From: a virus
Virus record (IMG/VR): IMGVR_UViG_3300035188_001379
Coordinates: 64,001-128,000 of that record
Length of the DNA stretch: 64,000 bases
Strand: one strand, 5' to 3'
A model generated the notes under the pieces. The model was not told the origin of the DNA. It did not search any database and saw only the letters and a program-made list of their open reading frames with translations. Shown here piece by piece: positions 19,579-23,035 of this stretch. Made by a program: the position numbers and the translations under genes. The stretch's first letter is position 1; each line of letters starts with the position of its first letter.

Positions 19579-19869
19579 ATGAGCACCGAAAACAACAACT
19601 CCTCCGCCAAGACCTTCACTGTCAACATCACTGATCGCACTGGTCATAGCTCTGTAGCGAATCTGTCGATCGAGAAAACTGTCGACACGATCGTAGAAAA
19701 CGTCGAGAACAAGTCTCGCTGGCTCTTCATCAACGGTGAAGCGGTAAACTTCAAGGGTGCAAGCTCTCAGTTGTCTACCGAAAACGTGCAAATGCTCCGC
19801 ACGATGCTGGAGAATCTGAACGACCCGACGATCCTGCTCACAGGCACTCTCGTTGGCGGCAACGAATAG
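19579..19869 (+). CDS. Ubiquitin-like (beta-grasp) modifier, pro-form ending GG-NE
   Basis: 96 aa; FTVNITDRTG hairpin, helix, WLFING, TILLTGTLVGG then NE; upstream of JAB and E1 genes. Confidence 0.7.
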   Translation: MSTENNNSSAKTFTVNITDRTGHSSVANLSIEKTVDTIVENVENKSRWLFINGEAVNFKGASSQLSTENVQMLRTMLENLNDPTILLTGTLVGGNE

Positions 19870-19897
19870 TCTAGAGGCTTAACCCTCACACACCTCG

Positions 19898-19934
19898 CCC
19901 CTGACATCTTACATGGTGTCAGGGGTTTCTTTTA
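19898..19934 (+). terminator. Intrinsic terminator after the Ubl gene
   Basis: CCCCTGACA-TCTTACATGG-TGTCAGGGG followed by TTTCTTTT. Confidence 0.75.
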
Positions 19935-19954
19935 TCCTCAACTAGCTTATTTTT

Positions 19955-22021
19955 ATGGAAATAACCTGCCACGAATTCAAAAGAACTACTAAAACTTTTA
20001 TTGACGCCCTGAAGCATACAGAGGCGGCCAGCATTAATCTACCTTTCTACTTATACGGCTCATCTCTTAAAGAATTATTTACACTTAGTCGCCTAGTTTT
20101 TAGGAACGTTGCAAAAATGTATGAGTTCTTGAAGTACTTGCCTGTACAGCCCTCGCAAGTTTCTATGAAGAACTTTCAGCAGCACGCAGGATTTTTGTCC
20201 TCTCTGCTTGATAGCAGCGAAGAGCAAAAAACACTAGGCACCATAGCTGCAACGCAAGAGTATTGTAAGACATTCCAAAGCGTGCGTCTTTTGCCTGATG
20301 CTATCCCAGAGGTTTATAGACCTTTTCTGATTAGAAATGCTCCTATAGAAACCACTGAAGGCGACCGTACATACAGGGCGATCACATGGACCACTGCGGC
20401 AAAGAGCTTACATGAGCTTGTTTACATGGCCTGCGACAGGGATACGATCTACGACTATCTCGACAAAGGGTATTTTATCATGTTTTCTGAGCAGCAGGCA
20501 GCTAAAAATAAGCTTGAAAAATGCGTAGTCGTGGCTGATCGCTACGACGTGAATACCGCACACATTTTCGCGCTGTGCAGGCTGCAGCCTTCTCTCTCAG
20601 AGCTGCTAAAGAACAAATGTTTTGCAGGATATCAAGATGCTGAAATGCTTAAACTGAGGATGCTCAAAAAGCTGAATACTGCACACAAGGCAGCATATCA
20701 GGCCGCCGCTGAGAAAATCGAGATAGACTACCACAAAAACTCTACGCTAATACTGCTTTCAAAGCTGCTAGATGGTTCGGTTGCAAAAACAACGCTCAAT
20801 GAGATTGAGTTTACAAAGACCTCTGCTACCTATGAGCGTATATCTGTTGAACACGATAGCTTACTAGTTATCTTGCAGAACTCGCTTAATTTCAACGGTG
20901 AGTTTGATATCTATGGTATTTGCGATATTCTTGGAAAAGAAGTACAGAAGATATCGGATGAAGCTGAGAGACCTGCAGAAGGCGAGCCCAAGCTCACGCT
21001 AGCAAATCTAAAAATTAACAGCATACCTATTCATTTAGAGCTGTCCTATACAGGCTGCCGCTATATCAATAGTGTGCGTGTAAATAAAGACGAGCTTGGC
21101 GCTGCGGTAGCTAGAGCAAGCTGCTACCAGGATGAGGCTGCGTATAAAGTGTTTCTTGAGACGATACGTGCGCTAAGCATCAAGCATCACGACATCATCG
21201 CAAATGGGTTGGCTGTAAAAATACATAGCACGATTACCCCTGAGGAGTATCGTTCCGCGCAACCTGGACCTAATGCTCCTGCGATTAAGTTTAAGATTGA
21301 TAAAGAGTCTCGCAGAGTTCATCTGGAGATTTCTGAAAATCGTAGCGTGCCTGTACATTTCCAGAGAATTATTAATAGGGTAAATACTCTTAATGAGCGT
21401 ACAAACAATGCGTCATCTTACAAAAAAGATGGTCCATGGGGGCACACAAGAGTTACAAAAAATTACAGGTGGGCCGCAAAAGAAATGGTAGAAATCTTGA
21501 TCAGTGCTTGTACAGCTGAAGAAGAGCATGTCAATGAGGCAGGAAACAAGATTAAAACCAAAAAAGTACTGATCACTGAAAATGATGTAGTCTTGCTGCT
21601 TGATGCAGCTAACGATAAAAAGAATGAGGCTATCGCAAGGTCTAAAGAGTTCATGGCTATGGCTGTGAAAAGTACAGGAGCCACAATGGTGGAATTCCTT
21701 GGAAAACCTGCATACAAAGTCTCAGGCAATCTGCGTACCTATGCGGTAATCATTGAGTCGGCCAAGGTCTACGACTTCGATACGAAGAAGTATCGCTGCA
21801 TCGTAAATCATAACCACTATCAGGGCGCAGGCTATGATGACGTAGCCACCAGGCTGCTTGCTCTTAAGAACGACAGCGTGATGCAGCAGGCGATTGGTAC
21901 ACTACAGGGAGAAGCTCAGCCTCAATATGAGCCTAACGGAAATACTAACGATCATGAGCGCGAAGGATTCTCAGAGTTTGATGTGCGTGCTGCGATAGGT
22001 AATGCATTTAGTGCTGCATAG
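19955..22021 (+). CDS. 688-aa uncharacterised protein of the Ubl/JAB/E1 cassette
   Basis: Long uninterrupted ORF between Ubl and JAB; no family recognised; C-terminal YRCIV...GYDDVATRLLALKND block. Confidence 0.85.
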   Translation: MEITCHEFKRTTKTFIDALKHTEAASINLPFYLYGSSLKELFTLSRLVFRNVAKMYEFLKYLPVQPSQVSMKNFQQHAGFLSSLLDSSEEQKTLGTIAATQEYCKTFQSVRLLPDAIPEVYRPFLIRNAPIETTEGDRTYRAITWTTAAKSLHELVYMACDRDTIYDYLDKGYFIMFSEQQAAKNKLEKCVVVADRYDVNTAHIFALCRLQPSLSELLKNKCFAGYQDAEMLKLRMLKKLNTAHKAAYQAAAEKIEIDYHKNSTLILLSKLLDGSVAKTTLNEIEFTKTSATYERISVEHDSLLVILQNSLNFNGEFDIYGICDILGKEVQKISDEAERPAEGEPKLTLANLKINSIPIHLELSYTGCRYINSVRVNKDELGAAVARASCYQDEAAYKVFLETIRALSIKHHDIIANGLAVKIHSTITPEEYRSAQPGPNAPAIKFKIDKESRRVHLEISENRSVPVHFQRIINRVNTLNERTNNASSYKKDGPWGHTRVTKNYRWAAKEMVEILISACTAEEEHVNEAGNKIKTKKVLITENDVVLLLDAANDKKNEAIARSKEFMAMAVKSTGATMVEFLGKPAYKVSGNLRTYAVIIESAKVYDFDTKKYRCIVNHNHYQGAGYDDVATRLLALKNDSVMQQAIGTLQGEAQPQYEPNGNTNDHEREGFSEFDVRAAIGNAFSAA

Positions 22022-22024
22022 ACG

Positions 22025-22438
22025 ATGAACAAACATTTGTGGACCCAATTGTTGACTGCTTCTGAAGTGTGCGATCATGCCACAGAAGAGCAGGGAGGGT
22101 TAATCCTCAGTAGAGATGAGAGTTTTCTGTTCGTACCGATCAGAAACATACACATAGGAACCATTACAGCAGTAGGGCTGTATGAGACTGATAAGCTAGA
22201 GCTGAAAACAAAGGTGTTTACGAGGATGAGTGAGGGCTGGAGAATGTTCGCCAGCTTTCATACGCATCCTATGTTTTCGGCTACTCCTAGTGTAACTGAT
22301 ATGACGTATCTGTTCCAAGGGTTTGAGAGTAATTATATTTACGCACCCAAACCACAAGTCTTCTCAGCTACGATCTGGGAAGGAGAAAAAAGCAAAACAA
22401 CATTCATACCTAAAGAAAAAATCAAAGAACTACTATAA
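22025..22438 (+). CDS. JAB/JAMM (MPN+) metalloprotease
   Basis: EEQGG plus exact HxH-x7-S-x2-D motif (HTHPMFSATPSVTD). Confidence 0.85.
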   Translation: MNKHLWTQLLTASEVCDHATEEQGGLILSRDESFLFVPIRNIHIGTITAVGLYETDKLELKTKVFTRMSEGWRMFASFHTHPMFSATPSVTDMTYLFQGFESNYIYAPKPQVFSATIWEGEKSKTTFIPKEKIKELL

Positions 22439-22441
22439 CAC

Positions 22442-23035
22442 ATGAGCATCAATAAAATCGCTATTGCGGGAGCAGGTGGAATTGGCAGCAATCTTCTTGC
22501 TATTCTCTTCGACTACGGGTTTAATCGCAAACAGTTCGATTATGCCTCTATGGAGGTTGACATCTGGGACGACGACGTTGTAGATGTAAAGAACCTGCTC
22601 CACCAAAACTTTAAGCTTGATGACATTGGTAAGCATAAAGTAGATGTTCTTGCTGATAAATATGTTGTGAATGGTGTCAAAAACAGGATGGCTGAAAAAG
22701 ACTTCAAAAAGTACGATCTAGTCTTCTGCTGTGTTGACAACATGCCGTTCCGAAAGTCACTATACGAGTATGGCTGGAAAGCTCAAAGCAAGCTATTTTG
22801 GATTGACGGTAGGTGCACCAGTAGACAGGGTGCCGTGTTTAATTCAGCCTTGCCCAAGGAAGTTCTACTTGGGTACATCAGTGACAGTGTTGAAGAAGGT
22901 GGCTGTTTGCTAGCTTATGAGAAAGAGCAAAACATCAGTCACACATTACCTACCATTGTGGCAGGTATGATGGTTCAGAATTTTCTGAACAAACTCAGAG
23001 GCGAGCAATCGTTCAAGTCTGTGTTCATGGTCTAG
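22442..23035 (+). CDS. E1/ThiF-family adenylating enzyme
   Basis: GAGGIGS, DDDVVDVKNLLHQ, GKHK, CCVDNMPFR, WIDGR, candidate catalytic Cys in EGGCLL. Confidence 0.9.
   Translation: MSINKIAIAGAGGIGSNLLAILFDYGFNRKQFDYASMEVDIWDDDVVDVKNLLHQNFKLDDIGKHKVDVLADKYVVNGVKNRMAEKDFKKYDLVFCCVDNMPFRKSLYEYGWKAQSKLFWIDGRCTSRQGAVFNSALPKEVLLGYISDSVEEGGCLLAYEKEQNISHTLPTIVAGMMVQNFLNKLRGEQSFKSVFMV

Follow-up and report, generated by a model that had tools for sequence, protein, structure and literature searches.

A four-gene cassette of an uncultured phage encoding a ubiquitin-like protein, a JAB peptidase, a minimal E1 and a large partner protein: a candidate viral protein-conjugation pathway

Results

The DNA analysed here is a stretch of 64,000 nucleotides, hereafter the window, which corresponds to positions 64,001 to 128,000 of the IMG/VR virus record IMGVR_UViG_3300035188_001379, an uncultured phage genome of 184,465 bp with an estimated completeness of 94%. 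At window positions 19579-23035 it carries a cassette of four open reading frames (ORFs), all on the + strand, which encode proteins of 96, 688, 137 and 197 amino acids (aa): in order, a ubiquitin-like protein (Ubl), a large multidomain protein, a JAB metallopeptidase and an E1 adenylating enzyme. The intergenic gaps are 85, 3 and 3 nt. A first-pass annotation, made by a model from the sequence alone, had reported four co-oriented genes here, the last three of them 3 nt apart, and had placed the cassette between polA and recA. Both statements were confirmed, with polA and a GP88-family gene flanking the cassette on one side and a RecA/UvsX recombinase gene on the other.

The first gene (19579..19869, + strand) was assigned as a beta-grasp modifier precursor of 96 aa ending in LVGG-NE on the basis of its ORF, an alignment of homologues, an AlphaFold2 (AF2) model and fold matches. 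The protein has a variable N-terminus rich in Asn, Ser and Thr and, at the other end, the pair G93-G94 followed by a two-residue tail, NE. This Gly-Gly pair was invariant in an alignment of 20 homologues, behind which stand tails of 0-9 unconserved residues, three of the 20 proteins stopping exactly at the pair. Neither Lys nor Arg occurs close to the pair; in archaeal Urm1, a remnant-friendly substitution has been introduced close to the C-terminus (PMC12625751). The AF2 model (predicted local distance difference test score, pLDDT, of 72) displays the beta-beta-alpha-beta-beta-alpha-beta order of a beta-grasp. Nearly all of the top 50 rows of a Foldseek search were ubiquitin-, SUMO-, NEDD8- or ISG15-type beta-grasp domains (E 0.01-0.05), and a second, independent aligner returned UBX, Ubl, PB1, SUMO, FAT10 and MoaD domains with Z up to 5.0. 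The individual matches are weak but together they are uniform, so that the beta-grasp fold, already suspected in the first-pass annotation along with the terminal GG, can be taken as established at the level that a structural model allows. No Pfam match was obtained at E<=0.1, nor a match to any other family, and the protein is not a Prok_Ub.

In the gap between the Ubl gene and the gene for the 688-aa protein lies a terminator-like hairpin (19897..19936, + strand), with a 12-bp stem containing seven G-C pairs and a T-run after it. A GC-rich hairpin of differing sequence, mostly followed by a U-run, was found just past the Ubl stop codon in all 20 distinct loci inspected from a clade of close relatives, and in about 11 of 20 distinct loci from a distant clade, even though the next gene is a different one there. 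Position and stem are thus retained while the sequence varies, as would suit a conserved terminator or attenuator whose effect would be more message for the Ubl than for the enzymes, and this in turn suggests that the Ubl is used stoichiometrically and not recycled catalytically.

The third gene (22025..22438, + strand), which starts 3 nt after the preceding stop codon, encodes a JAB/MPN+ (JAMM) metallopeptidase of 137 aa. Pfam Prok-JAB was matched above its cut-off (E 4.9e-7), and the exact JAMM motif H-x-H-x7-S-x2-D recognised in the first-pass annotation is indeed present, as HTHPMFSATPSVTD, at residues 79-92 (nt 22259-22300), with EEQGG upstream. The protein therefore combines the upstream Glu and the H-x-H-x7-S-x2-D zinc site that define JAMM/MPN+ metallopeptidases. 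Among the PADLOC models, weak matches to the Cap3-type proteins of the cyclic-oligonucleotide-based anti-phage signalling system (CBASS) were also recorded. The JAB is conserved in the 23 close loci that reach the gene and is present in 31 of 33 distant loci; in two distant loci that were missed by the JAB profile, the JAMM motif was still found between the Ubl and E1 genes.

The last gene (22442..23035, + strand) encodes a minimal ThiF/MoeB-type E1 adenylating enzyme of 197 aa, as judged from Pfam ThiF and an alignment spanning both clades. ThiF (E 7.2e-20) is its single domain and covers residues 5-189, with a GAGGIGS nucleotide loop at residue 10 and a VDN Mg-site at residues 98-100. The presence of a candidate catalytic cysteine, claimed in the first-pass annotation, was borne out: Cys155 (nt 22904-22906) lies in the crossover loop, the stretch before the last helices, and does not vary in either clade; Cys125, by contrast, is not conserved across them. 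The best NCBIfam match was to PRTRC_ThiF (TIGR03736), with 48.4 bits against a cut-off of 144.75, and with the PADLOC models only the E1 part of Cap2 was matched, weakly (E 2e-5 to 0.08). Homologues of the E1 fell into 329 clusters, all of about 197-198 aa. Identity to the window protein in the close clade amounts to 65-87%, against 34-56% for the Ubl, the 688-aa protein and the JAB, and the E1 is as conserved in these loci as PolA and RecA. There is no fused rhodanese domain in the E1, and no C-terminal CxxC pairs were seen in its sequence. In one locus (L003:11300-12476) the E1 gene is interrupted after residue 47 by about 1.2 kb encoding a LAGLIDADG homing endonuclease (E 4.3e-7). The two halves of this E1 are in different frames, so that a group I intron is more likely than an intein, and an insertion of this kind is a sign of a highly conserved site in the E1.

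The second gene (19955..22021, + strand) encodes a multidomain protein of 688 aa, the fourth constant partner in the cassette, which was characterised from its ORF, homologue searches and an AF2 model. It had been called an orphan in the first-pass annotation, wrongly as it turned out: a word-indexed search returned 55 close homologues, mostly on long contigs, and a profile search of 1.84 billion cluster representatives recovered 523 clusters (at 50% identity) with E<=1e-3, including 351 with E<=1e-10. All those clusters that were looked up are metagenomic and unnamed. Three alignments, one of the close clade and one each of two distant groups (these two with 22-27% mean column identity), were built independently of each other and agree in showing only two invariant cysteines, Cys390 (nt 21122-21124) and Cys615 (nt 21797-21799). 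The most conserved part of the family is formed by the C-terminal 110-120 residues, and most distant members end just beyond it. Inspection by eye did not reveal a PP-loop signature in the 688-aa protein, which does not look like a known sulfur-insertion enzyme.

The AF2 model of the full 688-aa protein is confident (mean pLDDT 83.9). Whole-chain Foldseek with this model returned nothing at E<=1e-3 in the PDB, and its first ~540 residues, searched only within the whole chain, gave no fold match. A search of BFVD yielded three unnamed viral proteins of 416-452 aa, which are probably shorter homologues. No usable match was obtained in the ESM Atlas with residues 540-688 and 110-440, PDB profile searches with four alignments gave nothing significant, and neither the 688-aa protein nor the Ubl matched a PADLOC model. 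The names given by JGI to two homologues, "negative regulator of replication initiation" and "ribosomal protein L18E", are unsupported by Pfam and NCBIfam and were discarded as noise.

A candidate domain resembling those of the ubiquitin-conjugating (UBC), ubiquitin E2 variant (UEV) or RWD type was delineated at residues ~553-652 of the 688-aa protein (21611..21910, + strand) from the AF2 secondary structure, structural alignment with VIA-align and conservation. The modelled order consists of a helix (554-574), four strands (577-607), a 20-residue loop and a further helix (628-638). The loop contains Y613, C615, N618, H621 and G626-Y-D-D, Cys615 coming eight residues past the last strand, and the Asn-Asp pair N639-D640 is kept in 98-100% of 193 sequences. 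This order of helix, strands, loop and helix fits the UBC fold and would place Cys615 where E2 enzymes carry their catalytic cysteine. When the model was aligned with 48,161 representative chains, no Z exceeded 5, but nine of the best 50 rows were UBC or UEV domains, all of them on residues ~553-652: the Vps23 UEV (Z 4.2), UBE2S (4.2), VPS37A (3.9), UBE2F (3.8), Ube2W (3.8), Ubc9 (3.7), bacterial BubB (9eav_D, 3.6), the Tsg101 UEV (3.5) and chain A of 4ccg, an E2-E3 complex entry (3.2). Further rows were 8ieg_R, from a Bre1/Rad6-Ub/nucleosome entry (Z 2.8), and a Ctf19-Mcm21 kinetochore chain (Z 2.1). The non-canonical bacterial E2s Cap2 and BubB are without the two C-terminal helices of the UBC fold (PMC11601596), and most members of the 688-aa family likewise stop right after the helices that follow the loop. 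That the C-terminal domain is E2-like is hence our leading hypothesis. With the three other proteins it would make up a phage-encoded, self-contained conjugation pathway of E1, E2-like protein, Ubl and JAB, a reading to which we assign a probability of about 0.55.

When 50 distant members of the 688-aa family were scanned with Pfam (E<=10), DUF7737 alone recurred, in five of the 50 and with a best E of 0.001. Sub-threshold DUF7737 matches were also seen in the window protein and in the family members P0127 and P0131, and their location is the strand region of the C-terminal domain, residues 574-621 (21674-21817). DUF7737 accompanies DUF4132 in bacterial proteins; we found no paper that explains it.

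In archaea, Ubl conjugation by an E1 alone, with a JAMM desampylase to undo it, is established. The phage cassette could work in the same manner as archaeal SAMP/UbaA or TtuB of Thermus, the E1 conjugating the Ubl by itself and the JAB reversing the reaction, with the 688-aa protein either as a dedicated substrate or as an adaptor that the tag switches. The weakness of the evidence for an E2 fold favours such a scheme, as do the faint matches of the JAB and E1 of the window to desampylase and UbaA models and the position of the large protein, which always adjoins the Ubl gene, in either order. The SAMP-family matches are, however, far under their cut-offs, and one would not expect a protein that is only a substrate to retain, across 523 clusters, an invariant loop cysteine and N639/D640. 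We regard tagging without an E2 as having little likelihood, and retain the conjugation pathway with an E2-like component as the preferred reading.

The four genes recur together in IMG/VR. The close clade comprises 25 loci, in which the order polA-GP88-(297 aa)-Ubl-big-JAB-E1-341 aa-RecA is kept wherever the locus reaches the gene in question. The distant clade comprises 33 loci with the order big-Ubl-JAB-E1, in which the big protein, the counterpart of the 688-aa protein, is 22-30% identical to it; here ribonucleotide reductase is encoded upstream, and a sigma-70 factor, PolA and a deoxynucleoside monophosphate kinase are encoded downstream. In both clades the cassette thus lies inside a replication and nucleotide-metabolism module. 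The conservation of the cassette in relatives, which the first-pass annotation had put forward as a check, holds for the co-inheritance of the genes and not for their order, which differs in the distant clade. The recurrence of the four genes in 58 viral loci is far beyond chance, and their survival through sequence divergence, permutation of order and change of neighbours marks them as a functional unit. The 688-aa protein belongs to this module as firmly as the E1.

Relatives of the cassette were also sought outside IMG/VR. None was found in 50,697 deposited GenBank phage records, whether by blastn with the region or by tblastn with the big protein, the E1 and two distant big proteins, and PolA itself has only ~23%-identical relatives among GenBank phages. 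A pattern scan of 185,579 bacterial and archaeal species, one genome each, found no relative with two alignments, a procedure that can miss distant members, and a search of 72,556 plasmids with the E1 gave a single weak PRTRC ThiF. On this evidence, with very close records possibly missing from the collections searched, the module appears to be confined to uncultured viruses. Our search of the full-text literature, with most subscription journals outside its reach, returned no description of a phage-encoded E1/Ubl/JAB cassette.

The occurrence of the family on viral contigs only would also suit a cassette whose main purpose is to disrupt the Ubl-based immunity of the host (Bil, type II CBASS or Bub), either by a JAB that strips host conjugates or competes for them or by the tagging and inactivation of host defence proteins. 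It is known that Ubl systems act in defence against phages (PMC10557695; 10.1101/2023.09.04.556158), and the weak matches that the JAB gives to Cap3, and the E1 to the corresponding part of Cap2, agree with a link of this kind. Decoy or stripping activity would nevertheless need the JAB alone, and not a conserved E1, a Ubl and a 690-aa partner; moreover, the cassette has replication genes as its neighbours and does not lie in a variable anti-defence island, while the E1 has been held as constant as PolA and RecA. Counter-defence is consequently a rather improbable main function, although as a statement on purpose it is compatible with the conjugation mechanism.

The genes around the cassette are as follows. 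On the 5' side the window encodes a DnaB-like protein, a family A DNA polymerase (15237-17942), the GP88-family protein and a 297-aa protein (18617-19510), the last of which is poorly conserved. On the 3' side a 341-aa protein (23091-24116) precedes the RecA/UvsX recombinase; in the close clade it shows 45-66% identity and always lies between E1 and RecA. Neither the 341-aa nor the 297-aa protein matched a family. Roughly one close relative in two, but at this position not the window genome, has an additional ~210-aa gene between the big and JAB genes (L003:10103-10729, L007:10078-10713, L012:10087-10725, L014:9965-10612, L016:9931-10620, L019:10223-10888, L020:10431-11054, L023:10062-10733 and L024:10126-10749); it bears PolB-type 3'-5' exonuclease or RNase_H_2 signatures (E 1.4e-8 in L014). 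In several distant loci the Ubl and JAB genes are separated by an additional ORF of 226-260 aa (L034:8909-9688, L035:8554-9330, L042:8706-9383), with faint helix-turn-helix signals in L034. A Shine-Dalgarno sequence was not recognisable before any of the four cassette starts (19560-19582, 19935-19958, 22005-22028 and 22420-22445); the host may belong to a group that initiates translation without one.

Discussion

The gene content, motifs and fold models presented above allow us to propose a plausible course for the conjugation pathway. The Ubl would be synthesised in precursor form and, given the terminator-like hairpin behind its gene, probably in excess. The JAMM peptidase would trim the short tail and expose Gly-Gly, and would probably also strip the tag from its targets. 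The minimal E1, of the homodimer type, would adenylate Gly94 with ATP and would then probably form a thioester with the Ubl on the crossover-loop residue Cys155, from where the Ubl could be handed to the 688-aa protein, on Cys615 of its UBC-like C-terminal domain. The N-terminal body of the 688-aa protein, of ~540 residues, may select the target or may serve as an E3-like relay, perhaps via Cys390. The tag would end up on lysines of phage or host proteins in the replication phase of infection. In both of two unrelated genomic contexts the cassette keeps company with genes for replication and nucleotide metabolism, so its targets may be proteins of the replication machinery, or host proteins handled at that time.

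Several observations weigh against this proposal. The E2-like scores are weak (Z<=4.2, root mean square deviation 3.3-5.3 A) and lie in a range that may reflect no more than a common arrangement. The first-pass annotation had allowed for a non-canonical transfer protein, and for this suggestion there is a hint from structure, in the form of a UBC/UEV-like domain with an invariant Cys615, while no sequence or profile link of the domain to any E2 emerged: all Pfam E2 families were negative, PDB profile searches were empty, and hhalign of the C-terminal domain family against a 37-member alignment of Prok-E2_D (PRTRC B) gave a probability of 0.2%. Asn618 and His621 follow Cys615, whereas the HPN motif of canonical E2s precedes their cysteine. 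Most Ubls of the distant clade are already mature, ending at GG, and in one distant lineage, represented by L051 (8401-9213) and L052, the order is big-Ubl-E1, the Ubl ends exactly at GG and neither a JAB nor a JAMM motif occurs within 7 kb. Where the Ubl is produced in its mature form the peptidase may not be needed, and with most distant Ubls mature and one lineage without a nearby JAB the role proposed for this enzyme is tentative. Lastly, bacterial neighbourhoods that combine Ubl, JAB and E1 without an E2 have been described as sulfur-transfer systems (PMC1779556), and in the present case the host could supply the sulfur.

The last point leads to an explanation in which the Ubl is a sulfur carrier. 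The E1 would adenylate the Ubl, a persulfide donor of the host would convert it into a thiocarboxylate, and the JAB would do no more than trim the precursor, or would set a product free in the manner of Mec+ in the CysO pathway. This scheme would make the 688-aa protein a new sulfur acceptor that thiolates, for example, a nucleotide, DNA or a cofactor, which fits the replication module and the repeated linkage of the cassette to nucleotide-metabolism genes. The E1 scores against ThiF/MoeB models, and no recognised E2 family was found in the genome. The same genome-wide searches speak in the other direction as regards the sulfur enzymes: the first-pass annotation had listed genes that are absent from the window, and its list can be extended to all 184,465 bp of the phage genome, in which neither rhodanese, cysteine desulfurase (Aminotran_5), ThiG or MoaE nor the Pfam E2 families UQ_con and Prok-E2_A to E were found, although for the sulfur enzymes those of the host could substitute. 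An E1 of 197 aa without a fused rhodanese or C-terminal CxxC pairs, a partner protein with two invariant cysteines only and no PP-loop seen by eye, the stoichiometric use of the Ubl suggested by the hairpin and the UBC-like appearance of the C-terminal domain likewise argue against sulfur transfer. We consider the sulfur carrier an unlikely explanation, and continue with the conjugation pathway.

If this pathway exists, its components could represent a virus-only branch of Ubl conjugation, centred on an E2-E3 hybrid of ~690 aa without a cellular counterpart, with Cys390 as a relay, a new target-recognition body and a minimal UBC-like domain, a branch that large lytic phages of many lineages would employ, as they replicate their genomes, for tagging proteins of the replisome or of the host. 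This wider picture is offered tentatively, and we would put it at somewhat worse than even odds. A complete and conserved kit belonging to lytic phages would mean that bacterial viruses also make use of Ubl chemistry, as eukaryotic viruses exploit ubiquitin, and it raises the question of what a phage must tag while it replicates. The cassette in any case offers a minimal E1 of 197 aa for mechanistic work and, for characterisation, a new protein family that spans over 500 clusters and keeps two cysteines invariant. Its four genes are small enough for joint expression in E. coli, so that the idea is testable without the host.

In prokaryotes, what has been characterised of Ubl conjugation up to now is its use by bacteria in defence against phages (Bil, CBASS Cap2/Cap3 and Bub). 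The phage cassette works most like these systems and PRTRC, and fails a defining feature of each. With the ISG15-like anti-phage system Bil (BilABCD; PMC10557695, 10.1101/2023.09.04.556158, PMC11601596) it shares a Ubl ending in Gly, here a beta-grasp protein with an invariant GG, a JAB/JAMM peptidase, an E1 and a candidate transfer component that bears a cysteine. Unlike in Bil, the phage E1 is a single domain of 197 aa instead of three domains, no Pfam E2 family is matched in the phage genome, the predicted E2-like fold is the tail of a 688-aa protein without a sequence match to E2s (Z 3.2-4.2), and the genes are encoded by a phage and not by bacteria. Bub (bacterial ubiquitination-like, "6E") operons (PMC11601596) share with our proposal a non-canonical UBC fold that lacks the last two helices and a JAB that trims the Ubl precursor. 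They are, however, built of JAB-E1 or E2-E1 fusions and use a crossover-loop Tyr and an E2 Ser in oxyester chemistry (PMC11601596), whereas the phage JAB and E1 are separate genes 3 nt apart and the candidate catalytic residues are Cys155 and Cys615.

PRTRC (ParB-related, ThiF-related cassette), which is found on plasmids and integrative and conjugative elements (e.g. pQBR55, L060), is the nearest known system in gene order. PRTRC_ThiF is the closest named model for the phage E1, and on pQBR55, also a mobile element, a small Ubl, a 488-aa unknown protein, an E2 and ThiF follow each other in an order resembling that of the cassette. Where pQBR55 has its E2, however, the phage has a JAB. The phage genome also lacks ParB, no ParB_N match being found across its 184,465 bp (94% complete), and its E1 falls well short of the PRTRC_ThiF cut-off (48.4 against 144.75 bits). 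Prok_Ub does not match the phage Ubl, nor does Prok-E2_D match anything in the phage genome, whereas PRTRC reference proteins do match these models. Comparison by hhalign of the 688-aa family with the PRTRC 488-aa protein and with PRTRC B gave nothing.

The likeness to type II CBASS, with its Cap2 (E2-E1) and Cap3 (JAB) proteins (PMC10097602), consists of the weak matches to the JAB and E1-part models. In contrast to CBASS, the phage cassette includes a dedicated beta-grasp Ubl and lacks both an E2-E1 fusion and a CD-NTase, a genome-wide CD-NTase search not having been run. QbsCDE and CysO/Mec+ are sulfur-carrier Ubl systems that include a JAB. Sets of this type, made of a ThiS/MoaD-like protein, an E1 and a JAB (Iyer et al. 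2006, PMC1779556), resemble the cassette in their short-tailed beta-grasp protein ending in GG, their JAB, their ThiF-type E1 and the lack of a recognised E2, but rhodanese, desulfurase and any known acceptor enzyme are missing from the phage, which does have a constant 690-aa partner with a UBC-like, cysteine-bearing domain. The sole phage pair of Ubl and JAB that we found in the literature searched, TAPI (Ubl) and TAPK (JAB-NlpC/P60) of lambda/T1 tail assembly (PMC1779556), is unrelated in both context and content, being located in the tail module, without an E1 and with its Ubl fused to another domain. Compared with all of these, the cassette is new as a virus-carried variant of this kind of system with a new large component.

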